Of a DNA stretch of 64,000 bases, positions 1,308 through 64,000 are shown in pieces. A program made the translations under genes and the position numbers. Under the pieces are notes generated by a model. That model made no database searches. It had not been told where the DNA came from and saw nothing but the letters and a program-made list of their open reading frames with translations. Position 1 is the first letter of the stretch. The number at the start of each line of letters is the position of its first letter. This DNA comes from a virus: the IMG/VR virus record IMGVR_UViG_3300045241_000083, positions 7,000-70,999 of that record; one strand, 5' to 3'.

Positions 1308-2713
1308 GTGATTACGATACATTCCTCCAGTCGAAGCAACTCGTCCTGCCGGATGCGGGCGTACAGGTTGACCGAAGCGCGTTGAACGCCTGCCTCTTCG
1401 ACTTCCAGGCGGCGTCCGTGCAATGGGCGCTCAGGAAGGGGCGCAGCGCCCTATGGCATGACACTGGGTTAGGCAAGACTCGGCAGGAGATCGAATGGAG
1501 TCGCATTGCGGCAGGAGAGACAAACGGCAGGGCGCTGATCGTCGCGCCGCTGGCCGTCGCATACCAAAGCGTCGAGGAAGGCGAGAAGATAGGCGTCACG
1601 TTGAAGTACGCGAAGACGCAGGACGAAGCCGCGTCAGTCGGACTGACAATCACAAACTACGAACGACTGCACAACTTCAATCCTGACTACTTCGGCGCTC
1701 TCTGCCTGGATGAAAGCGGAATCTTGAAGTCCTTCGATGGGGCCACGCGAACTGAACTTATTGCGTTCGGGAGGCAGATACAGTATCGTCTCGCCGGCAC
1801 AGCCACACCCGCGCCCAATGACCTAATTGAACTAGCAAATCATAGTGAATTTCTAGGAATCTCCACTCGCGGGCGTATGCTCAGTACCTTCTTCATCAAC
1901 GGGCAGGTAAATGGGCAGGAGAAGGCGGGATGGCGGCTGAAGGGGCACGCGCGCAAGGCGTTCTTCCGATGGCTTGCGTCGTGGGCCATGTCCATGAAAC
2001 GACCGTCTGATTTGGGATTCTCTGACGAGGGTTTCATCCTGCCGTCGCTCACTATCACGCCAGTCGTCGTCAAGACGGACATCCTGCCTACCGACCGGCT
2101 GCTGTGGGGCGGGCTGAAGGGAATACAGGATCGGAGCAAGGTACGACGCGCAACGCTCATGGATCACGTCTGCAACGCGGCGGACCTAATCGAGGCCGAA
2201 CCGGACGAACAGTGGCTCATTTGGTGCGGCATGAACGACGAGGCCGAGCAGATGCAGAAGGAGTTGGCGCGGCGCGGGCTGGCTTCGGATGAGGTCAAGG
2301 GTAGCGACGACCCGGAGCAGAAGGCTGTGAGGCTCATGGGCTTCGCGCATGGAGCGATACGCCGACTGGTCACAAAGCCGAAGATCGCAAGCCACGGCAT
2401 GAACTTCCAGTCCTGCGCCCGGATGGTGTTCGTCGGTATCGGCGATAGTTTTGAGCAGCACTATCAATGCCTGCGCCGATGCTGGCGGTACGGGCAGACG
2501 CGTCCTGTGAACGCATACCTGGTCTATACCGAGATTGAGGGCGACATCTACAACAACCTCTTGCGCAAGGAGGCGCAGGCCGAGGCGCTTTCCAGCGAGC
2601 TGATCGCGGCAGTTCGGGAGTTCGAGCGGGAAGAGATCGGCATGGCAGGTCCCGTATCGGACCTGTTCGCGCCAAGAGAAAGGATCGCGATACCATCATG
2701 GCTCGGAAGATGA
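1304..2713 (+). CDS. SNF2/SF2-type helicase
   Basis: Walker A DTGLGKT, DESG (motif II), GTATP (III), GMNFQ (V), QCLRRCWRYGQ (VI). Confidence 0.9.
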   Translation: MSDYDTFLQSKQLVLPDAGVQVDRSALNACLFDFQAASVQWALRKGRSALWHDTGLGKTRQEIEWSRIAAGETNGRALIVAPLAVAYQSVEEGEKIGVTLKYAKTQDEAASVGLTITNYERLHNFNPDYFGALCLDESGILKSFDGATRTELIAFGRQIQYRLAGTATPAPNDLIELANHSEFLGISTRGRMLSTFFINGQVNGQEKAGWRLKGHARKAFFRWLASWAMSMKRPSDLGFSDEGFILPSLTITPVVVKTDILPTDRLLWGGLKGIQDRSKVRRATLMDHVCNAADLIEAEPDEQWLIWCGMNDEAEQMQKELARRGLASDEVKGSDDPEQKAVRLMGFAHGAIRRLVTKPKIASHGMNFQSCARMVFVGIGDSFEQHYQCLRRCWRYGQTRPVNAYLVYTEIEGDIYNNLLRKEAQAEALSSELIAAVREFEREEIGMAGPVSDLFAPRERIAIPSWLGR

Positions 2714-17856: not shown

Positions 17857-20800
17857 TTACTGACCTGCCTTGGCCTCTTCACGCATATCGCGCATATCTC
17901 GCCGTAAATCTCGTAGTTCGGGCGGGACCTTTGATTCAGCACGCTCAGGAGAACCTCTGACTATGCGCGAGTTGAACGGATCGAACAATTCGCTCGTTTG
18001 CGGGATACTCTTTGGCTTCAACTTCTGCCGCAATCTTGGAACGCGAGCCTTCACGTAATCCATGACCGTTTGCCGTCTGCGCTCCTTCTCGTCCATCTGC
18101 GCCGCGATGTCCGCGATGAACGTCGGGACGAAACTGCCGATAGAAGAGCCTGCCAGGAACTTCGCGCCCTGCGAGGAGCCTATCTCGCCCCAGTCCTGCG
18201 CCGCGTGCAGGTATGGCAGTTCCCGCAGCGATTCGGCCACGGGATGAAGCGGATCGGTCTTGCCTGTAACTGCATCCGACAGGCTCGCCCCAATCGCGAA
18301 GAGTGTGCCGATCGGGTTGATGGTCTGCGTCTCGTAACTTCGCCTTCCGACCTTGACGCCCGGAGCGGCCCACCCCTTACGCTTCAGGTTCTCGCGTTCC
18401 TTCCAGTCCTCGGGGTATCCGACGGCTTGTCCCTTGCTTCTCATATACGCGCCCAAAGCAATGATTCCCAGCCCGACCAATCCGCGTCCGAAGGTGCGTG
18501 AGAAGTTCCGCTGCTCCTCAAGGCTCATCGTTTCGCCGACCTGCTTACGGGCGTAGACCTTCGCCGCTTCGTATACCATACCAACCGGCGTGTACTCCAG
18601 CATCCGCGCCACTATATTGACTGGCACGGTCTGGACAGGGAAAACGAAGTCCAGCACGTTCGCCGCTATGTGTCCGGGAAGAGCCGCCGGCCCCTTGCGT
18701 TCCTTGCCTCTCATACTCGCCGTGAACGCCCGCATGCCCGTACTGAGCTTGTTCTTGTTCAGGAAGACCGCTGCCTCCGCTTCCGTAGCGGCCATTGCCG
18801 AGATAGCTTCAGCGTCCATGTGAGGATAGACGCGAGCCAATTCCTGTCTGGCCCGTTCGAATGCGGCGAGCTTAAAAGGCCGGTACGCGGCAGAGTGAGC
18901 GCGCGAAGCTGCTTCGACGTAAGCGTCACCGATAGCAGTCCCAGTGCTCGGCGCGAGATGCAGACCAGTTGAGGTAGAGCCGATCGGCTGCATTCCCGTT
19001 CGTTCCTGCGCCTTCGTCTCGCCATGTCGCGCGATAGCCGCCGCCTCCGATATCCCCTGTGTCGCCGCCTTATAACCCGCCTGAGCGACTTCTCCGAGTC
19101 TGGGCGCAAATGCCGCGCGCCGACCTGGAACCGATCCGACGATGCTCGATCCCGCCTTGGTAGCGACCAGCGCGTCCACTACTGCGCTTGGAATCTTCCG
19201 CACTTCCTCCGCGCCGAGGTATATCCCGTGGGAGACGAGAACCTTCGCGATGATCCGGGGAGCCGTAATCAGTCCAGCCCGACGGATAGCGAGGATCTTC
19301 TGTGTGAACGATACTGGCTGCATCATCAGGATTTCGGCGTTCACCTGATCGCGCAGCGCGTCCCGCTTGCTTCGCGCTTGGGCCAACTCTTCGTCAACCG
19401 GTCCCGGCGGGCGAGCCTTCTTCTGGAAATCGCGCTCGCGTAACTGTCGTTCGAGTTCAGCTATGGACTTGGCAGTCATCCTTTTCGCCTGCGCGAGCCT
19501 CTGTTCGTCAGTCATCTTGACCGGCTCGGCAGTAGCTTTACGCATCTCCTGCAACTGGCTCAACAGCGCGGCATGTTCCAGTTTCGCTTGACCGAGTTCT
19601 TTCGACCAGACCGCGACCGTCTGCTTCTTCCCTTCGATATCACCCACCTGGATACGGCGGTTTAGTTCGGCATTGGCCTTCACGGTCGCGCGCAGGCTCG
19701 ATTCGATCTTGCGTTGTTCGGGACTGCCCTTCACGGCATCGCGGGCCGTTTTTCGTAGGGCCGCCATCTGCTCTCGTAACTTGACCTGCTGCTGCTTCAG
19801 TTGGCCGAGTTCAGCGGACCACGGTGAGGATGCCGTCTTCGCCCCCTCGATGTCGCCTGACTGAATCCGCTTCTGTAGATCGGCGATGGATCGCTGAGTA
19901 GCGCCGATAGCCGTCCTGATCTTGCTTTGGTCGATGTCGCCCTTGTTTAGATTGTCATATACACCCTGGAGTCTGTCACGTTCGACCTTGAGCGCATTGG
20001 CCTCCGCGTCGTACGCGATCTTCGTCTGCTCCGGCTTCTTCGTCTTCGTGTCGATGTACCTGTTAAGGTCCGTGATCTGGTTCTTCAGCCGCGTCTTAAC
20101 AGCGTCCATTGCGCTCTTTAGCCCCTCCGCCGTGGAACGTGTATTGGCTATTCCCTGCTTGCGCATCGTCTCATTGACTTCAGCGGTCAGACGGCGCACC
20201 TCGGCGCTTTGGGCGTCGCGCTGGAAACCCGTCTTCAGCGGACGCTGTCCCTTCTGAGCGTCCTCCAACTGCTCTATCTTGAGCATCTGCGCTTTCATCT
20301 CGCGAAGCGTCGCGGCATTCTCTTCCGGGTTAGGCTTCGTCGTCTCTCCGTACCGGCTGATAGCGCGGCGGATGTCACTGTGGGTTATGCCCTCGATAAC
20401 ATCCTTGGCCGTCTCGTGGATTTCGCTGACCAGCGCGCCGATTTCCCGGACGCCATGCGAGATCAGGACCTTTGCCATCCTGACGACGATGCCAGCCTCT
20501 TCCGCTGGTAGCCTGACGGCGCCGGACTGTCGGCTGGTAGGCTTGCCCGGTCGGGAACGTAGCGCGCGCCACTCGTCCGCAAGGCCCTTGAGTTCGGCCT
20601 TGAACTCGCCTCGCGCCGCAGTACGGTTCAGTTTGCGGGTCGCCTTCTGGCCCTCGCGCGTCAATTCCTCGACAGCCGATTGCGCGCGCTGGTTCTCGTA
20701 TGCCGCGTCCGCCGCCTTCTTCTCCTGCTCCTTGGCTGCCCGGTCCTGTTCGGCCTTCTCGTATTCGGCGACCTTCGCCCGCAGGGATTCCACTTCCGCG

Positions 20801-23800
20801 CTATTGATCGAACTGCCCTTCGCCATTACCGCCCGCCCGACGACGGCCTTCAGGCTCATCTTGTCGTCAATTGTGAGCTTGCGCGACTCGAGCGCGCGGC
20901 CCTGCATCGTGCCCGACTTCTTGTCGATCTCGGCGATACTGGCAAACTCCTTCAGCAACCGCTCGCGCTCGGAGCCGGCGCGCAGTATCTCGCGGCTGCC
21001 GGTAAGCGTAGACGTGGCTTCTTCCAATGCAGGCAGGCGGTTCTTGATCTGCTGGAGCCGGATGTCAAGTCCAGCAGTCTCTTCGGCGCTCAGTCCGCGC
21101 GGACGAGATCGCATCTCGTCAATCGTGCCACGGATATGCTCCTCGGTATGAAGCCCCTGATCGAACGCCTTTGCGAGCGTTTCGATGTGTGATTGCGGAG
21201 TGTGCGGGTTCAGCGGAGGCAGGCCCAACCGCTCCAAGTCGCGGTTCACCGACGCGTTTCGAGAGGCCGTATCATCGCCTTCCGGTTTCGCCTCTCGTGT
21301 GATTTCCTCCGTGGGAACGCGCTTGCCGATCTCATTCCACGCGGCGTGAAGATTCTCGTCGCTGATCTCGTGTCCGAGGTCGGCGCGCATCCGCTTGGCC
21401 CATTCAGCGAACGTGCGGATACCCGCTTCGACGTGGTAGCCGCCGATCTCCACAAGGTCCTTGAGTATCGTCGGATCGATGCCCGCAGACAATCGGTTCA
21501 GCTTGTCCTTGAGTCGATTGACGGCTTCCTCGTACGCGTCTCTGGTGAAGACCTTGTTCTGCGCGCCGTACTCTTCGGCAGGCTTGGTCTTTGATTCCGC
21601 GCCCGCGCTCTCCGCCTTTTCACCAGTAGGACGAGGAGGCTCTGGCGCAGACTCAGCCTTCGGTGCCTCTCCCTGCTTCACAGGAGGCGTTTCTGCGGGC
21701 TTTGCGGCTGCGGGGGTAGGTGCGGGCGGCTCGGCGGGTTTGGGCGTGGGAGGCTCGCCAATATTCCAGTTGTTACCCTTTAACGACCAGCGACGACTTC
21801 CTGCAGGCCCCTTATTCAGCATGACGTAAGGTTCGGACGCCGATGCGGGATGGACAACTTTGCCTGCGTAGACTTGCCCCTTCTCGTCTTTCCACCAGAC
21901 CTTATCACCAACAACAGGAGCCCCACCGGATGGTTGACCTGCGGAAAGCCCCCCTTTCGCAGAATCCGGTGGGGTCGTTGTAGCTGCGGAGGACGGTGCA
22001 GCCACAGCGTTGACACGGTACTCCGATCCATCGGCGCGGCGGATGACATGCTCGCCGTCAACGATGCCCTCGTAGCGTGCGCCCTCCGGTACGGTGACGC
22101 CGGCAGGTGCAGGACGCGCTTCGGGGGCAGTTCCGCCGACGTGCACGTCAGGTTGTGCCGCCACCGCCCCCGAAGCCTTCTGATAGTCCCACTGCTGCCC
22201 ATCATGCGCGAGCCGGGACACGGTGCCCATATCCGGCGCGTCCTGCATGAACACATTCGGATCGAGCCGGATCGGGTTCATCGGCTCGCCCGCCGCCTTC
22301 CATGCCCGGATTGCACGCTGCACCGTCGAATTGGTCACGAGGACCGGCGTGCCGCCCTCAGCCCGCACCTTCTGGTAGGCCGGGATGATCTTGTCGATCC
22401 ACTGCTGAACCGACTCGCCGCCGGGGAACGCCTGGTCCGGGTTCTCGACGTGCTGGCGGATAATGGCTTTGTTCGCATCGTTATCCGGCTGCGTCCTGAG
22501 CGCATCACCGATGTCAAGCGGCTCGAACTCGTTGTTGACCACAACCGGCAGGCCACTGACGTGCGCCATGATCTTCGCGGCCTGCTGTGTACGCTGGAGC
22601 GGTCCCGAGACGATCCGGTCGGCCCCGCTGTCCTTCAGGCTCTCACCGGCCTGCGCCGATTGCTTCTTGCCGGCGGTCGTCATCGTAACGCCGCTCGGCG
22701 CGGAGAGTTTGCCCGCGCGATCCGGTATCTCGCCGTGGCGCGCGAACAGGACGCTCTCGGCTGTGCCGGGTGGAACGGTTAGCCCTTGCGATTGCGTGGG
22801 CGCTGAGGCTTGGACTGCGGCTTCGGCTGGACCCGCTCCGGCAGTCCCTTGAAGCCCCCCGGCTGCGACTTGGTTGCCTGCTCCCACTCCTTGATCTTGG
22901 GGAATTTGCCCTGGGACGCCAGTTCCTCCAGCTTGCGCTGCTGGGCCTTTGACTTGAACGGCACCTGTCATCACCTCCTCTGTTGGGGTTGGTACGACTG
23001 GCGGGGCGGTTTCGGCCATCTTCTCCGGTGCGCTGATAGCGCGTCTCCGAAGGTAGGTATCCGCCGTGTGACGGAGTGTGTCGGCCAGGTAGTTGAACGC
23101 CCACTGCCGGTTGTCGCCCTTCACGGACGCTGCGTGCTGTGACGCTACTTCCGCCGCGCCCCGCAACGCTTGAGCTTTGTCCAGTGATGGCTCCGACATG
23201 AAGCCTTCGACGATCTGCCCGACGCTCTTGCGGACGTTCTGTCGATCCGCCGCCGCGATCCCATGCTCCAGAATGGCCGGTGAAAGAGCCAGTAGGAAGT
23301 TGAACGACGCACCACCTGTGTCCCCTTCCCGCAGTTGGTTCATCGCGTTATTGGCGGCGTTGGCGGAGAAGCCAGCCATGATGCCACGAGCCAGCAACGG
23401 GGCGCGTGTCGCGATCGCGCCGACTCCCACACCGCTTAACTGCATCTCCGGGTCGGCGAGGCTGTAGAGAAACTTCTCCGCCTCCGGTGCGAAACCTCGC
23501 GCCTGCGCCAGTACCTTCGCCCCCTCCGGCCCGCGAATAAGGTTGGCAAGCACTTCTGACGGACGTAGGGTCGATATGTCGCCTGTCTCGTGGTTGATGA
23601 CCGCGCCAACACCAATCACGCCTTCCGGCCCTGTTTGCGGTGGAACGAACTCCTGTTTCGCCTGCTGCGCTAGTTCGTCGGCCTTCTCAAGGATCGCTTG
23701 CTGCGCGACCGGCTTCATCTTCTGCAGGCGCGGGAACCACGTTGGATCGGCAGGGTTCCTAGAAAGCGCGTCCGCCGCTCGCATAGGCACGTTGGCGCGC

Positions 23801-24906
23801 AGGTTGCCGGTGTTCATGAAGTCCATCTTGAACTTTTGAAGTTGGTCATCCGTGAAGAGCGTCGCGGGCGCACGCAGGCTCGTAGGCTTGCCCTGTGTCG
23901 ATGACGGGAAGATCACGTCAGACGCCGTGTAGCGCCCGTTTGAGGGAGGCGAGGCAGGAGACGGCCGCAGGTCCATCGGCGGCTGCATCGACGCCTTGAG
24001 AGCGGAGATAACAGGTTCAGCGGTTGCGCCGGAGACGGCTCCAGCCGCTGCGCCGAGGTCGCGTCCATAGAATCCGAACTGCTGCTTGGCGGCATCTGTC
24101 ACAGTACGCGCGATCGGCCCTGCCGCCGCTCCAGCAGCCGCGCCAATCTGCCCTCCAGCGGGTGTAGGTGTGGCGGACGGCGGCGTGCTGGAATATCCCG
24201 GTGGTAGCGGTGGAAGCGTTGGAGACGGAGCATTGCCCGCTTGGTCCATCTGAACAGCATCACTGAGCATCTGCGCCATGTAGCCAGGACCGGAGCTCGC
24301 GTACGATCCAGGCGGGACCTGAAAGCCTCTCGGCAGGCTGACGTGGATATGGTTGTAGTGGTCTCCACCGATATTCGTCTGCCACAGGTAGCCCTTGTTA
24401 GTGCCATGCTCGCCGAAGGAGTATCCTGCCTGCTCCAGGTGCGTCACCAGCAGGTCGCCGAGGTTCTTGCCCTGCTTGGAGGATAGCGGCACGCCGTTGA
24501 TTGTCGAGATGTCGAGCGCCAGCCCAGGGATATGCCGCGACCGGTTTCCACTCTGCGCTACCTGCAGGTTGTGTTCGAGGGTCCGCTGCGCCGAGCTGAT
24601 TCCGAGCTTGAATCCGAGGCCGTCCGCGATGTCGTTGATGTCATTCAGAAGTCCCGCATGAGCGCGGCCGCCTGACTGACCCATGAACTGCAGGCGCGGG
24701 AATCCGCTGATGGGAACGATTTTGCTCGGCGGAGCATCCGAGAAACCTGCTGGAAGAGGCGGCATGGAGGACGGCTGCGCGCCCTGGTAAGGGTTCGCAG
24801 GCACCGGCATCGGGGGCGCATCGGTGTAGCCGGCAGGTAGAGGCGGCAGCGTTGCGACTCCGCCGCCCTGGTCGCCTTGATTACCAGATTGAGGATCGTC
24901 CGGCAT
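17857..24906 (-). CDS. giant internal virion/ejection polyvalent protein (~2,350 aa) with M15-like peptidase and histidine-phosphatase-like domains
   Basis: SSAQRT...SRHIPGLALDI...HYNHIHV (M15 Zn-peptidase pattern); VLFARHGE...IVSGPLQRTQQAA...FPGGES (His-phosphatase pattern); long helical C-terminus; located after two smaller ejection-type genes. Confidence 0.8.
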   Translation of the reverse strand: MPDDPQSGNQGDQGGGVATLPPLPAGYTDAPPMPVPANPYQGAQPSSMPPLPAGFSDAPPSKIVPISGFPRLQFMGQSGGRAHAGLLNDINDIADGLGFKLGISSAQRTLEHNLQVAQSGNRSRHIPGLALDISTINGVPLSSKQGKNLGDLLVTHLEQAGYSFGEHGTNKGYLWQTNIGGDHYNHIHVSLPRGFQVPPGSYASSGPGYMAQMLSDAVQMDQAGNAPSPTLPPLPPGYSSTPPSATPTPAGGQIGAAAGAAAGPIARTVTDAAKQQFGFYGRDLGAAAGAVSGATAEPVISALKASMQPPMDLRPSPASPPSNGRYTASDVIFPSSTQGKPTSLRAPATLFTDDQLQKFKMDFMNTGNLRANVPMRAADALSRNPADPTWFPRLQKMKPVAQQAILEKADELAQQAKQEFVPPQTGPEGVIGVGAVINHETGDISTLRPSEVLANLIRGPEGAKVLAQARGFAPEAEKFLYSLADPEMQLSGVGVGAIATRAPLLARGIMAGFSANAANNAMNQLREGDTGGASFNFLLALSPAILEHGIAAADRQNVRKSVGQIVEGFMSEPSLDKAQALRGAAEVASQHAASVKGDNRQWAFNYLADTLRHTADTYLRRRAISAPEKMAETAPPVVPTPTEEVMTGAVQVKGPAAQAGGTGVPGQIPQDQGVGAGNQVAAGGLQGTAGAGPAEAAVQASAPTQSQGLTVPPGTAESVLFARHGEIPDRAGKLSAPSGVTMTTAGKKQSAQAGESLKDSGADRIVSGPLQRTQQAAKIMAHVSGLPVVVNNEFEPLDIGDALRTQPDNDANKAIIRQHVENPDQAFPGGESVQQWIDKIIPAYQKVRAEGGTPVLVTNSTVQRAIRAWKAAGEPMNPIRLDPNVFMQDAPDMGTVSRLAHDGQQWDYQKASGAVAAQPDVHVGGTAPEARPAPAGVTVPEGARYEGIVDGEHVIRRADGSEYRVNAVAAPSSAATTTPPDSAKGGLSAGQPSGGAPVVGDKVWWKDEKGQVYAGKVVHPASASEPYVMLNKGPAGSRRWSLKGNNWNIGEPPTPKPAEPPAPTPAAAKPAETPPVKQGEAPKAESAPEPPRPTGEKAESAGAESKTKPAEEYGAQNKVFTRDAYEEAVNRLKDKLNRLSAGIDPTILKDLVEIGGYHVEAGIRTFAEWAKRMRADLGHEISDENLHAAWNEIGKRVPTEEITREAKPEGDDTASRNASVNRDLERLGLPPLNPHTPQSHIETLAKAFDQGLHTEEHIRGTIDEMRSRPRGLSAEETAGLDIRLQQIKNRLPALEEATSTLTGSREILRAGSERERLLKEFASIAEIDKKSGTMQGRALESRKLTIDDKMSLKAVVGRAVMAKGSSINSAEVESLRAKVAEYEKAEQDRAAKEQEKKAADAAYENQRAQSAVEELTREGQKATRKLNRTAARGEFKAELKGLADEWRALRSRPGKPTSRQSGAVRLPAEEAGIVVRMAKVLISHGVREIGALVSEIHETAKDVIEGITHSDIRRAISRYGETTKPNPEENAATLREMKAQMLKIEQLEDAQKGQRPLKTGFQRDAQSAEVRRLTAEVNETMRKQGIANTRSTAEGLKSAMDAVKTRLKNQITDLNRYIDTKTKKPEQTKIAYDAEANALKVERDRLQGVYDNLNKGDIDQSKIRTAIGATQRSIADLQKRIQSGDIEGAKTASSPWSAELGQLKQQQVKLREQMAALRKTARDAVKGSPEQRKIESSLRATVKANAELNRRIQVGDIEGKKQTVAVWSKELGQAKLEHAALLSQLQEMRKATAEPVKMTDEQRLAQAKRMTAKSIAELERQLRERDFQKKARPPGPVDEELAQARSKRDALRDQVNAEILMMQPVSFTQKILAIRRAGLITAPRIIAKVLVSHGIYLGAEEVRKIPSAVVDALVATKAGSSIVGSVPGRRAAFAPRLGEVAQAGYKAATQGISEAAAIARHGETKAQERTGMQPIGSTSTGLHLAPSTGTAIGDAYVEAASRAHSAAYRPFKLAAFERARQELARVYPHMDAEAISAMAATEAEAAVFLNKNKLSTGMRAFTASMRGKERKGPAALPGHIAANVLDFVFPVQTVPVNIVARMLEYTPVGMVYEAAKVYARKQVGETMSLEEQRNFSRTFGRGLVGLGIIALGAYMRSKGQAVGYPEDWKERENLKRKGWAAPGVKVGRRSYETQTINPIGTLFAIGASLSDAVTGKTDPLHPVAESLRELPYLHAAQDWGEIGSSQGAKFLAGSSIGSFVPTFIADIAAQMDEKERRRQTVMDYVKARVPRLRQKLKPKSIPQTSELFDPFNSRIVRGSPERAESKVPPELRDLRRDMRDMREEAKAGQ
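22779..22964 (-). CDS. small basic protein nested out of frame in the giant gene
   Basis: AGGAGGT SD 8 nt before GTG; MPFKSKAQQR...KEWE..T......LPERV resembles a small phage protein family. Confidence 0.55.
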   Translation of the reverse strand: MPFKSKAQQRKLEELASQGKFPKIKEWEQATKSQPGGFKGLPERVQPKPQSKPQRPRNRKG

Positions 24907-24907
24907 A

Positions 24908-24937
24908 TTGCGTTGTACCTGCAAAACGTGCTACTAT
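24908..24937 (+). promoter_or_regulatory. promoter of the RAMP/pentamer-array cassette
   Basis: TTGCGT-18 bp-TACTAT with extended -10 TG; predicted start near 24944. Confidence 0.6.
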
Positions 24938-24943
24938 GTGAGC

Positions 24944-25049
24944 GTCACGGTCGCTGGAGTACAATTTCATAAAGAAGGCATGGCGCAAGCCATCCTCTCG
25001 ACGCCCGCTTTCCAGCGACCGTGACAAGTAGCTGAGATGGCGGGCGTCG
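24944..25049 (+). ncRNA. structured leader RNA of the RAMP cassette
   Basis: 15-bp IR (24944-24958/25011-25025); internal ATGGC-GCAA-GCCAT hairpin; competing 10-bp pairing 24999-25008/25040-25049. Confidence 0.55.
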
Positions 25050-25060
25050 TTGCGTGTGCC

Positions 25061-25280
25061 GATCAGCTTTGACCTGATGGGCCGCGCCAAGTCAGGACTA
25101 GCCGAGATACGTCTTGTTCAGATCAGTTAGGCTCCGATATGCCACGGCGAGATATGTTTTGCCCGGTTGCGATGCGCCCGGACGCGATTGGACTTGATGG
25201 GCCAAGCCGGGACAAGTTCCGAAAAGCTATGCCGAGCCACGCCTGGCTGTGACAAGTTCGGATGAGACGGGCCGAGTCTT
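25061..25280 (+). repeat. pentamer-periodic non-coding array 1 (44 x G-H-Y-N-N), candidate guide RNA
   Basis: G at position 1 in 44/44 units, pyrimidine at position 3 in 43/44, G at position 2 only once; positions 4-5 variable. Confidence 0.92.
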
Positions 25281-25304
25281 ACTCTCTCTCAGAAAGGAAC
25301 GAGA

Positions 25305-25970
25305 ATGTCCACTGCTACGAGAACGAAGGGAAACGGAAAGCCAGTTGCGATTGAGACGTTGGACACAAGCCAGACGACGAATGGCGGCGATTTTGTTGTC
25401 GACAAAGGCCGCCCCTACATCGCAACCGTGAAAATCGAGGGAGTCGCGACACTCCTGCTTCACGCATGGAACTGCGATTCGGTCGAAGCGAAGGCTGGAG
25501 CCGTGAAGGGCAGTTCGGCCAAGAAGACGGATGATGTAGAATCGTACGTCGTTCGGGCATCGAATGGCGAAATCGGCATTCCCGCATCGTACTTCCGCGG
25601 CATGATATGCGGGGCGCAGGGAGCCGCGAAGTATCGCCAGGACCCGCGCTCGCCGCGAAAGTCCGCGCTCGACCTGTACCGCGCTGGCGCGGTGATTATG
25701 ACGGAGATTGCATCGCTCGGCGTCAAGAAGTGGGACCTGCTCGACAAGCGGCGCGAGGTAGTCATGCGCGCTGGTATCACGAGAGTGCGTCCTGCTATGC
25801 TCGCCGGTTGGCGGTGCGAGTTCGATATTCAGTGCATCCTGCCTGAGTACATCAGCCCACACGATCTTCACTCGGTTCTCGTCGATTGCGGCCGTCTCTG
25901 CGGCCTAGGTGATCATCGTCCCACATATGGACGGTTCGCCATCGTCGGCTACGAGGTTCGGCAGCTTTGA
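25305..25970 (+). CDS. stand-alone RAMP/Cas7(Csm3)-like RNA-binding protein
   Basis: VKIEGVATLLLH (beta1), GEIGIPASYFRGMI (compare IPGSSLKG), GWRCEFDI, C-terminal Gly loop GRLCGLGDHRPTYGRF; AAAGGA SD. Confidence 0.8.
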   Translation: MSTATRTKGNGKPVAIETLDTSQTTNGGDFVVDKGRPYIATVKIEGVATLLLHAWNCDSVEAKAGAVKGSSAKKTDDVESYVVRASNGEIGIPASYFRGMICGAQGAAKYRQDPRSPRKSALDLYRAGAVIMTEIASLGVKKWDLLDKRREVVMRAGITRVRPAMLAGWRCEFDIQCILPEYISPHDLHSVLVDCGRLCGLGDHRPTYGRFAIVGYEVRQL

Positions 25971-26193
25971 CTCGCTCAGATGCGCTATGTCTCGCCCTGC
26001 CACGTCAGGACAGGTTGCGACTCGTCTTGTCGCGCTGTGGCAAGTCGCGCTGCGTTAGGACGTGCTACGCATAGCCGAGACAAGTTCCGCCAGGACAGGA
26101 TCAGATCGGATATGCTCAGTTCAGCCATGCTGTGTTGTGTTTGGTTTAGACAAGCCTAGACAAGCCAAGACTGGATTAGTCGTGCTTCGATTA
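25964..26193 (+). repeat. pentamer-periodic non-coding array 2 (46 x G-H-Y-N-N), candidate guide RNA
   Basis: G at position 1 in 46/46 units, pyrimidine at position 3 in 45/46, G at position 2 only once; starts at the last codons of the RAMP gene. Confidence 0.92.
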
Positions 26194-26197
26194 TCTC

Positions 26198-27697
26198 CTA
26201 CCGCTGCGGCACCCACTGGCCGTTCTGTAGGAGGAATGTCACCGGACGCCCCTGCGCATCGTAGGCGCGCCGCGTGACTGGCGCGCCTGTCGGTGCCTTT
26301 GGCGGTGCAGCAACTCCCGGAACTGCGGATTTGGCGCTCGACGCAAGAGCGTTGGCCGCTTGATTCGTTGCGGTAGGACTCGGATTGCCGGTAGCCGCTG
26401 AGCCAACCTGCATGTATCCGCCTTTCACAAGCGAGCCGTAGGCATCGTCACGCAGACCCTTCAGCGCGTCCAATGTCCCTTGAGCCTGCACCTTCTGCTG
26501 AGCCAACTGGTCCAGTTTCCTGACGGCGAATGGATTACCTATCGCGGCCATGTTTAGGAGCGCCGAAGGGATCTTCTCGTCAAATCCTGTCAGTTGTGCC
26601 TCCAACGCCGCCGTGTCCCGTTTCAGCCCGTTGTACGTCGCCCTGGCATTGGCTGCCGCTATCCTCCGGTCGCCTTGCGCGAGTTTCGCCCAGTCAATCT
26701 GTGAAAGCAGGGAGACCTTCTGGCTTGCGACCGTTTCCAGCGCGCGCCGATGCGTAATCAGTGACTGCTGCACCTGGCGCTTGAGAGCGTCATCTGCAGG
26801 AAACGCGGCTACCTGATCTTTGAGTAACGCCGAACGCTGGTCGGCAACCTCTTTGTACGCCTGCGCGCGCGTCTGTGCGGCCTGCGCCGTCATCGTCCTC
26901 GCGGCGGTCACCGCCGGTATCGCGCGCGCCTGAGCATCGTGCCACGCCTTGAGTGCGTCATCCTTACCGATCTTCGCCTGCTGTCCAGCCGTCAGTTGCC
27001 CGAAGAAGTCACGAGGCAAGCCAGGAACGTCGGGCGCGTGAGGAACTCCCTCCTGCTGTTGGGCTATCCCCGGCGCAGCTCCAGCGACAGAAGCCGCCGC
27101 GCCGATCGCCGGGGCCATCATGCCCATCATCCCGGCCGCGGGATTGAACGGCGACATCGCCATGCCGCCCATCATTCCCGGCATTCCCTGCTGTGCACCA
27201 AACTGCGCGGATTGAGGAAGCTGTTGCTGCATCGCCCTCTGCGTGTCCATCTGCTTGCCGCGAGCGACCGCCGCGACCTGCTGCTCCACCGGCGTCTCGT
27301 GCATCCAGCGCGCGAGAATTCCGTAGTTCAGGACCTGCTCCGGCGTCGCGCCAACACCCACGAGGCTTGTGACGAGACCCTTCGTGTCGTTGGGCCCCCA
27401 CTGCTTCTTCTCTCCTGTGTTGTCGGCGCGCGCCTGCGCTTCGGCAGTCATGGCCTTCGTGTAGTCCGGTCGCGCCTGTGCCTCCTTAAGCTGCGCGTCA
27501 CGAAGCCCCTGCCCCTGGTTCCATTCCAGCTGCCGCTGTGCGAACTCACGCGCCTGCTGGTCGCGGATGGCGTTCTGGTACGCCGCAGTCTGCGCCTGCT
27601 GCTGCTGAGCTAGGCCGTAGTTCTGCTGCGATTGCTGCTGTTGGTCGAACTGGTTTCGACCCTCGAACAACGCTTGCATGAAGGGAGAGAGACCCAC
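26198..27697 (-). CDS. putative internal virion/DNA ejection protein
   Basis: Gln/Ala/Met/Gly-rich helical protein between nozzle genes and the giant protein. Confidence 0.7.
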   Translation of the reverse strand: MGLSPFMQALFEGRNQFDQQQQSQQNYGLAQQQQAQTAAYQNAIRDQQAREFAQRQLEWNQGQGLRDAQLKEAQARPDYTKAMTAEAQARADNTGEKKQWGPNDTKGLVTSLVGVGATPEQVLNYGILARWMHETPVEQQVAAVARGKQMDTQRAMQQQLPQSAQFGAQQGMPGMMGGMAMSPFNPAAGMMGMMAPAIGAAASVAGAAPGIAQQQEGVPHAPDVPGLPRDFFGQLTAGQQAKIGKDDALKAWHDAQARAIPAVTAARTMTAQAAQTRAQAYKEVADQRSALLKDQVAAFPADDALKRQVQQSLITHRRALETVASQKVSLLSQIDWAKLAQGDRRIAAANARATYNGLKRDTAALEAQLTGFDEKIPSALLNMAAIGNPFAVRKLDQLAQQKVQAQGTLDALKGLRDDAYGSLVKGGYMQVGSAATGNPSPTATNQAANALASSAKSAVPGVAAPPKAPTGAPVTRRAYDAQGRPVTFLLQNGQWVPQR

Positions 27698-35786: not shown

Positions 35787-36743
35787 CTAAGTTCCCGGGC
35801 TGGCATATATGCCACGTCCGTCCGAAGCACCCCACGCGAAGCGCTCGGTGGCGACGTATAGATAGGACTGCACGTTGAGAATCCAGTCGCTATCGACCAC
35901 CACGTCGCTGCGCTTGTACCATTCGAGGTGATGCTTCTTGCCGAGGATCATCCAGCCGTTGTAGGCAGGTGTGGTGTACGTACCGCCCACGGAGCCGCTG
36001 ACCTGCCAGTATGGCCACTCGATGATCGACACGCCGTCCCTAGCAGCGGTGTTGGACTGATTGTCCGCCGTCCCTCGCTCCTTCGGGTCGTTGAATATCT
36101 GGTACGCGACCTGATGAAGGTTCGGGTTGATTACGCACACGTCCGGCGCGTTGTCCATGTAGGCGTAGTTGTTCGGCGCGGGCTGCTGAACGAGGTTAGC
36201 CCTGGCCGCCTGGTACGCCGCGATGGAGAGGTCAATGTCCACCGACGGGCGGTTCGAGTACGTATACGCGGCATTCTGCTTGGAGATCGGGTGTGCCGTG
36301 TTCGCAAGCGAAAGGCCGTCGATCATGCCTGGCACCTGCGTGGCGCTGGTGAAGCCGTAGAGCTTGAACCAGTTGGCCGCGAGCCGCTCCTTCAGCGTGC
36401 GGAAGGATTCGGCGAGAGCCCCGCCGCGCTGTGGGAGAACGCGGTGGATGATCCCGTACAGGTCGTCATCCACGTCCTCTTTAAAGATCGTGTCTCCGAG
36501 GGCGTAGTTGGCGACCACGTACTGCTTGCTGTACGAGTCGATGAAGGTCCCGAGCTGGACAGGCTCGCCGCCCAGCCGGTGGGCCGGAGCGCCGTACGTC
36601 TGCCACTGCTGGACCTGAATGTAACGCATATCCGTGTCCTGGACACGGAATATCTGGTCGTACTTCGAAGGCACCGCGTCGATTTCAACGTAGAGGTGCT
36701 CCTTGATTCCCTTTATGAATAAAGGTATGAGCTGAGCAGAGAT
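35787..36743 (-). CDS. major capsid protein (HK97 fold), probable ATC start
   Basis: YDQIF...YALG..I..ED.DDDLY...LAESFR.LKE..AAN...DGLSLANTAHP...I.PNL...A.QI......GTADN..N...ERFA.G.SD.RGIYASPG; the frame stays open upstream to a strong SD. Confidence 0.8.
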   Translation of the reverse strand: MSAQLIPLFIKGIKEHLYVEIDAVPSKYDQIFRVQDTDMRYIQVQQWQTYGAPAHRLGGEPVQLGTFIDSYSKQYVVANYALGDTIFKEDVDDDLYGIIHRVLPQRGGALAESFRTLKERLAANWFKLYGFTSATQVPGMIDGLSLANTAHPISKQNAAYTYSNRPSVDIDLSIAAYQAARANLVQQPAPNNYAYMDNAPDVCVINPNLHQVAYQIFNDPKERGTADNQSNTAARDGVSIIEWPYWQVSGSVGGTYTTPAYNGWMILGKKHHLEWYKRSDVVVDSDWILNVQSYLYVATERFAWGASDGRGIYASPGT

Positions 36744-55300: not shown

Positions 55301-55965
55301 ACGAAACACTTACACCACTCAGAAATGGTATGCCGCCACTGCCACGCGGCATGAAGAACCTGCCGGTTGACGACCGGGGTTACCCTATCCCCTACTTCGC
55401 CGCCTTCATAGACGGCAAGCCGGACTTCCGGGTCATGGACGGGGATAAGTTCGTCAAGTGCTGGCGCGAACAGCGATGCTGGTTATGCGGCGAATACCTG
55501 CCGACCATCGTAGCCGCCGTGATCGGGCCGATGTGCACCATCTCCCGTACGACCGCCGAGCCGTTCTCGCACCTAGAGTGCGCCGAGTTCGCCGTGCGTG
55601 TCTGCCCGTTCCTTACACTGCCAAAGGCACACAGGCGAGATGCGCTGCTGCCTGGGCCAGACGTAGTACAGGATGCGGCTGGAATTAGCATCGACAGGAA
55701 CCCAAGAGCCTCGGCAGTCTGGATCACAACTATCAGCCGGGTTACTCCGTTCAGGGATGGTAATGGCGGCATTCTGTTCAACGTAGGCGAACCGTTGGAG
55801 GTGCATTGGTACTACGAGGGCCGCAAGGCGACACGCGCCGAGGTGGAGGAATCCATCCGCACAGGGATAGGCGCACTGGAGAGTATGGCAGAGGAGGATG
55901 GCCCGGACGCTGTTGCCGAACTCGCGCAGATGAGAAAGGCGGCGGAGAAATTTCTGCCAGAGTGA
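55297..55965 (+). CDS. Zn-binding hypothetical phage protein
   Basis: RGYPIPYF...PDFR...CWLCG...P.SH.ECA.FA...CPFL. Confidence 0.7.
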   Translation: MNETLTPLRNGMPPLPRGMKNLPVDDRGYPIPYFAAFIDGKPDFRVMDGDKFVKCWREQRCWLCGEYLPTIVAAVIGPMCTISRTTAEPFSHLECAEFAVRVCPFLTLPKAHRRDALLPGPDVVQDAAGISIDRNPRASAVWITTISRVTPFRDGNGGILFNVGEPLEVHWYYEGRKATRAEVEESIRTGIGALESMAEEDGPDAVAELAQMRKAAEKFLPE

Positions 55966-63673: not shown

Positions 63674-64000
63674 TGGAAACCACGATTGCGTTTGAGGGGA
63701 GTGGTCGTTCCGGTTCCGGTTACGGTTCCGGTTCCGGTTACGGTTACGGTTCCGGTTCCGGTTACGGTTCCGGTTCCGGTTACGGTTACGGTTCCGGTTA
63801 CGGTTCCGGTTACGGTTCCGGTTACGGTGACGGTTACGGTTACGGTTCCGGTTACGGTGACGGTTACGGTTACGGTTCCGGTTACGGTTCCGGTTACGGT
63901 GACGGTTACGGTTACGGTTCCGGTTACGGTGACGGTTACGGTTACGGTTACGGTTCCGGTGACGGTTACGGTTACGGTTACGGTTCCGGGTCCGGTTCGG
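63673..64000 (+). CDS. Gly-Ser/Tyr/Asp repeat protein (runs off the window)
   Basis: METTIAFEGSGRSGSGYGSG...; TGATG coupling. Confidence 0.6.
   Translation, partial: METTIAFEGSGRSGSGYGSGSGYGYGSGSGYGSGSGYGYGSGYGSGYGSGYGDGYGYGSGYGDGYGYGSGYGSGYGDGYGYGSGYGDGYGYGYGSGDGYGYGYGSGSGS
63709..64000 (+). repeat. hexamer tandem repeat GGTTCC/GGTTAC/GGTGAC
   Basis: Continuous 6-nt periodicity to the window end. Confidence 0.95.

Follow-up and report, generated by a model that had tools for sequence, protein, structure and literature searches.

The window analysed here is a stretch of 64,000 nucleotides from a 71-kb soil phage (positions 7,000 to 70,999 of IMG/VR record IMGVR_UViG_3300045241_000083, the full 70,999 bases of which are called the phage genome below). 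It carries a compact cassette of 1.27 kb in which vipr, a gene for a protein of 221 amino acids, is flanked by two arrays of five-base units that lie on the same strand as the gene. The cassette and its surroundings contain the following features.

17857-24924, minus strand: 2355-aa open reading frame with a DarB-like antirestriction match (phrog_10089, residues 1096-1437)
24944..25027, plus strand: strong hairpin, a 16-bp perfect stem around a small inner GC hairpin
25061..25280, plus strand: putative vrRNA array 1, 44 pentamers G-H-Y-N-N in one unbroken register
25064..25073, plus strand: motif CAGCTTTGAC at the 5' edge of array 1
25305..25970, plus strand: vipr gene, 221 aa, predicted Cas7-like RAMP protein with the G-loop GLGDHRPTYGRF; AGGAA 8 nt ahead of the ATG
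25962-25971, plus strand: second copy of motif CAGCTTTGAC, at the 5' edge of array 2, containing the vipr stop codon
25964..26193, plus strand: putative vrRNA array 2, 46 pentamers G-H-Y-N-N
26198-27697, minus strand: 499-aa gene, convergent with vipr and neighbour of array 2

The first position of the pentamer is G in all 44 units of array 1 and in all 46 units of array 2 (90/90 together). The third position is C or T in 43/44 and 45/46 units, respectively (88/90 together), the exception in array 1 being GAAAA at 25221. The second position is A in 33, C in 33, T in 22 and G in 2 of the 90 units; G occurs there in GGCGA (25146) and in GGCAA (26039), and the count of 2 in 90, given in the initial annotation as an avoidance of G, is exact. 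The string of NN dinucleotides listed there for array 1 is letter-for-letter identical to that obtained on re-reading 25061-25280. Of the 16 dinucleotides, 15 occur at the NN positions of each array, with an entropy of 3.74 bits in array 1 and 3.68 bits in array 2 out of a possible 4, and the description of the string as high in complexity and unlike a slippage microsatellite is borne out.

A scan of the whole window for a period of 5 in any base finds array 1 and array 2 only. Uninterrupted runs of at least seven G-N-Y units in the 70,999-base genome are confined to the two arrays on the plus strand and to one 7-unit run on the minus strand; shuffled genomes contain 0.2 such runs per strand. 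Tandem Repeats Finder, applied to the window, reports neither array, which is expected because the units have just two positions in common.

The start of array 2 overlaps the final codons of vipr, and 4 nt separate its end from the stop codon of the 499-aa gene, with which vipr is convergent. The 3' end of array 2 runs directly into TCTCC and the end of that gene, and the 3' end of array 1 runs directly into ACTCTCTC and a ribosome-binding site. The sole feature common to both array ends is a last unit with a T-rich NN, followed by pyrimidines. Neither array contains phase breaks or guide-separating hairpins. The motif CAGCTTTGAC at the two 5' edges may be a start or processing signal; no sigma-70-like promoter is called within 24800-26400.

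The neighbours of the cassette are virion genes on the opposite strand, encoding the 2355-aa DarB-like protein and the 499-aa protein. The translation of the former contains linkers rich in proline and alanine, and this protein is probably a component of the virion that is injected. The hairpin lies between array 1 and the start of the 2355-aa gene, which diverge from this intergenic region. The fold of 24925-25065 has a minimum free energy of -61.4 kcal/mol (z -4.36), and none of 200 shuffled sequences is equally stable. The hairpin may be a leader, an operator or a terminator. Rfam has no family for any part of 24000-27000, where the only match is a sub-threshold chance one to mir-284 (26 bits, where the gathering score is 60).

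A hexamer repeat, GGTTAC / GGTTCC / GGTGAC, is present at both ends of the genome, at window positions 63707-63998 and at genome bases 1-120. Read as codons, it encodes Gly-Tyr / Gly-Ser / Gly-Asp. The break in the record is probably internal to one long repeat, perhaps a coding repeat rich in glycine, so the molecule may be circular or permuted and these ends need not be real termini.

The protein between the arrays and its relation to VIPR

Pfam has no family for the 221-aa protein, and in PHROGs it belongs to phrog_4652, of unknown function. It has 4820 metagenome homologs at E<=0.001. A profile of 64 homologs matches a single PDB sequence at E<=10, which is 36pp_D, 'SUSP1 Vipr protein'; the match has an E-value of 2.8e-11 and covers the part from the thumb to the G-loop. 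The significant alignment between SUSP1 Vipr and the 221-aa protein is limited to the C-terminal 74 residues. An AlphaFold model made on the homolog alignment has a pLDDT of 81 (the single-sequence fold, with a pLDDT of 41, is unusable), and its best Foldseek matches are chains of Csm3/Cas7, Cas7-11 and type VII Cas7, with E-values of about 1e-5, among 86 matches at E<=0.001. By its sequence profile and its predicted structure, the gene product is homologous to Vipr and has the RAMP fold of Cas7-like proteins.

The relation to the class 1 Cas7 backbone (Csm3 of type III-A, Cas7-11, type VII Cas7) is one of a common fold, with a TM-score of 0.5 and sequence identity of 10-16%. Published structures indicate that the logic is also common, as a thumb interrupts the guide-target duplex at fixed intervals. 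The Cas7 effectors have a 6-nt period with 5 nucleotides paired, whereas VIPR has a 5-nt period with 2 paired and reads double-stranded DNA discontinuously. With class 1 CRISPR-Cas systems only the fold is shared: the window contains no CRISPR array and no repeats of CRISPR size, and none of the 11 of its 72 open reading frames that match PHROGs matches a Cas family.

VIPR (Viral Interference Programmable Repeat) systems are described in preprints of 2026 as consisting of a phage-borne RAMP protein, Vipr, and of vrRNAs built from 9-16 pentamers with a fixed GGY and a free NN (10.64898/2026.04.26.720920). One Vipr protomer binds each repeat and holds its fixed trinucleotide (10.64898/2026.04.26.720920; 10.64898/2026.04.26.720927). 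The NN dinucleotides pair with double-stranded DNA, where every third base, usually the wobble position, is skipped; binding silences rival phages or satellites, and silencing was abolished when the NN pairing was disturbed (10.64898/2026.04.26.720920). The target calls of that discovery paper use a cut-off of 80% of NN matched, and its text reports no self matches above threshold in the systems studied there. It distinguishes seven VIPR types and describes staggered arrays, ribozyme arrays and the consensus variants NNNGG, YNNNG and NNNNG; a vap gene beside vipr is called 'typical', not universal (10.64898/2026.04.26.720920). Solo vrRNAs of satellites redirect the Vipr of another element, according to 10.64898/2026.10.15.759431. 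A further preprint applies entropy periodicity and reports 21 clusters (6,318 sequences) of arrays with a 5-nt period beside Vipr-like folds, in which the fixed trinucleotide is not GGY; examples are GAC, CAC, WGT and TGH (10.64898/2026.10.21.760802).

The type II VIPR of the Escherichia phage SUSP1 (PDB 36pp), as described in the text of 10.64898/2026.04.26.720920, resembles the locus in that a small stand-alone RAMP protein of about 20 kDa is carried by a phage and is flanked on the same strand by pentanucleotide repeats with a fixed trinucleotide and a free NN. The residues that contact the RNA can be compared by means of the profile alignment to SUSP1 Vipr and the contacts given in 10.64898/2026.04.26.720927. 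The G-loop GDxRPxxGRF is kept, and its D, R, P, G, R and F are invariant in 64/64 homologs. H17 and D177, which contact G1 in SUSP1, align with H53 and D203, both also invariant in 64/64 homologs, and R138 aligns with R162. W178, which stacks on G2, is replaced by H204, the corresponding residue being F in most relatives with GGY arrays, and the fixed part of the repeat is G-G-Y in SUSP1 and G-H-Y here.

The two systems differ further in the layout of their RNAs. In SUSP1 the vrRNAs are separate, comprise 9-16 repeats and end in a conserved tail with a pseudoknot, whereas the 44 and 46 units of the window run in one register, and no 3' tail or pseudoknot of the SUSP1 vrRNA kind is found after either array. 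The absence of a tail does not exclude membership of the VIPR family, because tail-less types are described in the same preprint: in its long or staggered types the arrays have no separate tails, and one vrRNA ends where the next begins (10.64898/2026.04.26.720920). Among relatives of the Vipr of the window, tails, phase shifts of 1-6 nt and hairpins after each array are all seen, and the arrays of the window have none of these. No vap gene adjoins vipr, in contrast to SUSP1, and a check of open reading frames and neighbours finds no small gene on the vipr strand there. Three features of the locus are thus unusual: the second position that is not G, the unbroken arrays without tails, and the lack of an adjacent accessory gene.

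Because the flanked gene is identified as a Vipr by the profile match and by the Cas7/Csm3 RAMP fold, the locus is taken to be a phage-borne VIPR system and 25061-25280 to be the upstream of its two vrRNA arrays, with a probability of about 0.87. The suggestion of the initial annotation that NN forms a gapped guide is the published VIPR mechanism, and the locus falls into the family by protein sequence, fold and layout.

If the SUSP1 work is a guide to this phage, the arrays would be transcribed and one Vipr protomer would bind each pentamer, which would therefore give a helical Vipr filament along the RNA. G1, position 2 and Y3 would each be turned outward into a pocket of the protein, and the N4N5 dinucleotides of consecutive units would be presented together and would pair with one strand of double-stranded DNA in the reading NNxNNx..., the unread base therefore usually being the third position of a codon. 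Binding would repress transcription of a rival mobile element.

The pairing rule in related phages

The loci of relatives comprise 80 from IMG/VR, 80 from metagenomes and 6 from genomes. The relatives compared have a Vipr that is 50-60% identical to that of the window; the close clade P0002-P0013 (64-75%) is left out. Nearly all of 82 related loci have GGYNN arrays, the longest with 119 units, directly before and/or after the gene and on its strand. At the locus L015 (980-2675) each array of 14-28 units closes with the same GC hairpin (agcggggaggcgaaagcctcc...), unlike the arrays of the window. At L002 (Phage DSL-LC04, OR003939.1, 2974-3591) the Vipr homolog is annotated as a 'helix-turn-helix transcriptional regulator'; a GGYNN region of 320 nt lies ahead of it, and an overlapping 147-aa open reading frame after it is a possible vap gene.

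The pairing rule was tested with 253 arrays of the relatives (5323 units) against 877,036 positions, comprising the loci and the phage genome with arrays masked, a match being a 10-unit window with at least 18/20 NN bases identical. A skip of one base gives 178 matches, as compared with 3 for no skip, 4 for a skip of two and 19 for a skip of three bases. When the order of the units is shuffled, three runs with a skip of one base give 10, 10 and 6 matches. An enrichment of this kind over shuffled units had been proposed in the initial annotation as a check on the guide reading, and it is found in the arrays of relatives, for a gap of one base only. The matched segments are 8-14 units long, with a median of 10, and are often the first or last units of an array. 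Because matched segments in relatives have this length, each array of 44 or 46 units in the window probably supplies about four guides.

Of 65 guide-target diagonals in loci with full flanks, 20 have their target within the vipr gene of another locus (8 plus-strand, 12 minus-strand), and in all 20 the skip falls at codon position 3, as the annotation had suspected of the gaps. Guides in L042 (1841-1990), L016 (2643-2942), L077 (4135-4219) and others match conserved parts of the vipr genes of other phages, on both strands. The arrays of relatives are thus shown to follow a match with a 1-nt skip, in phase with the wobble position, to genes of other phages. The rule is the same as that of SUSP1, in which one base is skipped, at the wobble position, on either strand.

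In the arrays of relatives, the remaining positions of the unit carry no sign of target information. In 710 matched units, positions 1, 2 and 3 are unrelated to the skipped base, which leaves the idea that position 2 might also be informative without support. A tie between Y3 and the skipped base, suggested by a hand count of 6/10 at each of two sites, disappears in the 710 units (observed 0.307, expected 0.287) and was rejected.

Identical NN strings in distant loci, which would have spoken for a structural rather than a programmable array, are not seen in the relatives compared. The best 8-unit window of the phage's own strings against 251 arrays of relatives (with Viprs 50-60% identical) reaches 12/16. 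In the other direction, guides in L016 (2643-2942) and L012 (2738-2942) match the window at about 55799-55833 and about 35920-35950, with 18/20 and a skip of 1 nt. Altogether 429 arrays of relatives give 3 such windows in the phage genome under a skip of one base and none under skips of 0, 2 or 3. The relatives possibly cross-target this genome, the similarity being borderline.

Targets of the phage's own arrays

For the arrays of the window themselves, sequence searches have established no convincing natural target. It is because of this that support for the gapped-guide reading consists of family membership and family-level statistics. A search of the phage's own 70,999-base genome with 8-14 units and skips of 0-2 gives nothing above shuffles, and two weak candidate sites are noted.

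2654..2679, minus strand: weak candidate site for array 1 units 2-10, 16/18, 1-nt skip
26784..26809, plus strand: weak candidate site for array 2 units 10-18, 16/18, inside the 499-aa gene, skips at codon position 3

The first site falls in the helicase gene of the phage itself (1304-2713), read on the antisense strand and again with skips at codon position 3; on the same diagonal, three bases past the listed end, array 1 units 1-10 match in 17/20. For 9-unit windows with at least 16/18, these two self near-matches compare with 0.18 expected, and two or more occur in 5/150 shuffles; there are none for skips of 0 or 2. The genes concerned may be copies that have escaped, their counterparts in rival relatives being the targets; alternatively, the sites may serve self-regulation, or the matches may arise by chance.

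Helicase homologs at 31 loci, 39-50% identical, contain no match to the guides, and for the 499-aa protein one marginal relative was found. Over 162 related loci (1.39 million positions) there is no match of the phage's own arrays at 18/20 or better. A 20/24 site under a skip of 0 (in L138 and L165, which are copies of one sequence) is at about chance level by estimate and was set aside, and a peptide-level search for the arrays on 120 Vipr proteins gives nothing.

The two self near-matches bear on an alternative in which the arrays are functional vrRNAs with some guides directed at the phage's own genes, so as to control when, or at what dosage, the helicase and the 499-aa virion gene are expressed, instead of or besides acting on rivals. 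Both sites, at 17/20 and 16/18, are above the 80% NN cut-off of 10.64898/2026.04.26.720920, and the codon phase of their skips and the excess over expectation fit such a role. The signal is weak, however, with P about 0.03 before the coincidence of phase is counted, and each site contains 2-3 mismatches, whereas the published silencing did not survive disturbed NN pairing and the systems studied in that preprint have no self matches above threshold. The same data fit guides against the copies of rival relatives, with the phage's own copies escaping. The helicase homologs found do not match the guides. Self-regulation is considered improbable.

A wider search in IMG/VR used exact seeds of 8 units with a 1-nt skip. 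Units 4-11 and 37-44 of array 1 give 5 and 9 matches, and units 3-10 and 39-46 of array 2 give 5 and 94 (80 of these 94 stretches were checked); for all four seeds the numbers are at chance level. One match of array 1 extends over units 34-44 with 21/22 and lies in an Amidase_2 endolysin gene (L178; PF01510 checked). Other extensions at the last units of array 1 are 21/24 in L176 and L181, which are related to L178, and 20/22 in an unrelated open reading frame in L174. The amidase contigs have 45-48% GC, as compared with 59.6% for the phage. No second guide converges on the same element in four whole contigs, and no Amidase_2 gene is found in the phage itself. The odds of such an extension in 9 seeds are ~0.04 by estimate, before correction for four seeds, and Amidase_2 as a target is unproven. 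A match of array 2 units 36-46 in L260, although 22/22, lies in an A-rich stretch of 24% GC and off the wobble frame, and was rejected as chance.

The lack of a target for these long, unbroken and tail-less arrays could also mean that they are not guides at all, and that they act as decoy or sponge RNAs for the phage's own or a rival's Vipr, or as a structural scaffold for the Vipr filament. The solo vrRNAs of satellites, which redirect the Vipr of another element (10.64898/2026.10.15.759431), offer a precedent of sorts. The published decoys are, however, themselves guides that pair with DNA sites, and the near-maximal entropy of NN would be needless in a scaffold. Moreover, the arrays adjoin an intact vipr gene in the same way as the guide arrays that have demonstrable targets in relatives. 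A decoy or scaffold is very unlikely.

The simplest explanations of the periodicity, as a slippage microsatellite, a coding repeat or a DNA-level array of protein-binding sites, have nothing in their favour besides the 5-base period and can hardly be credited, given that a period of 5 is out of codon phase and no long frame runs over array 1, that the units have only two positions in common and so do not look like slippage copies, and that arrays of the same kind with different NN lie beside Vipr genes in nearly all of 82 loci. The microsatellite and the coding repeat, as well as an RNA bound by a TRAP-like or CsrA-like protein, were dropped on the grounds that the neighbouring gene is vipr and that the same arrays occur in relatives.

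With a VIPR system as the preferred reading, the locus is a clean and intact example from a 71-kb soil phage. The arrays of its relatives provide independent computational confirmation of the rule of a 1-nt skip, in wobble phase and on either strand, outside the published SUSP1 and P. fulva clades. Apart from the handle, that is, the fixed part of the repeat, the finding is explained by the existing preprints.

The second position of the repeat

In the notation of 10.64898/2026.04.26.720920 the unit of the window is YNNGN, the first G being kept and the second lost, and it falls outside the three variants named in the text of that preprint. Nor is G-H-Y, in which two of the three positions are degenerate, one of the examples given in the text of 10.64898/2026.10.21.760802. 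As position 2 is not G, the published contacts to GGY cannot all apply here.

In relatives, the frequency of G at position 2 is 77% of 6587 units when the G-loop residue at the place of SUSP1 W178 is F, 83% when it is Y, 70% for M and 71% for N. The same array detector applied to the region of the window finds G at position 2 in 5/100 units, as compared with the 2/90 of the hand-defined arrays. H204 is present in the 11 closest of the 64 proteins, together with C199, C171, E151, A94, A104, N105 and R126. The corresponding changes, F204H, V199C, A171C, V151E, G94A, P104A, A105N and K126R, are each found in 10-11 of the 11 members of this subclade and in at most 5 of the 53 others. In this alignment H204 fits, and does not prove, a position-2 pocket that is relaxed or that excludes G. 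It was rejected as the sole cause of the change in the arrays, being contradicted by L045, a more distant relative that also has H at the position of W178 and yet has G at position 2 in 28/33 units. Since L045 keeps GGY despite this residue, H204 alone is insufficient for the change of handle.

A functional switch of the handle, as opposed to drift, is put forward tentatively, and we regard it as rather doubtful. The subclade would read G-H-Y and reject G-G-Y, so that only its own vrRNAs would be loaded, with no cross-loading by the GGY Viprs, solo vrRNAs or decoys of rivals; the orthogonality would have arisen from phage-phage conflict, and the unbroken arrays would be used, uncut, as long multi-guide filaments. 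If the change at position 2 does represent an altered RNA specificity, the locus would provide a second, orthogonal pair of Vipr and handle for programmable DNA binding, and it would bear on how rival VIPR systems escape cross-loading.
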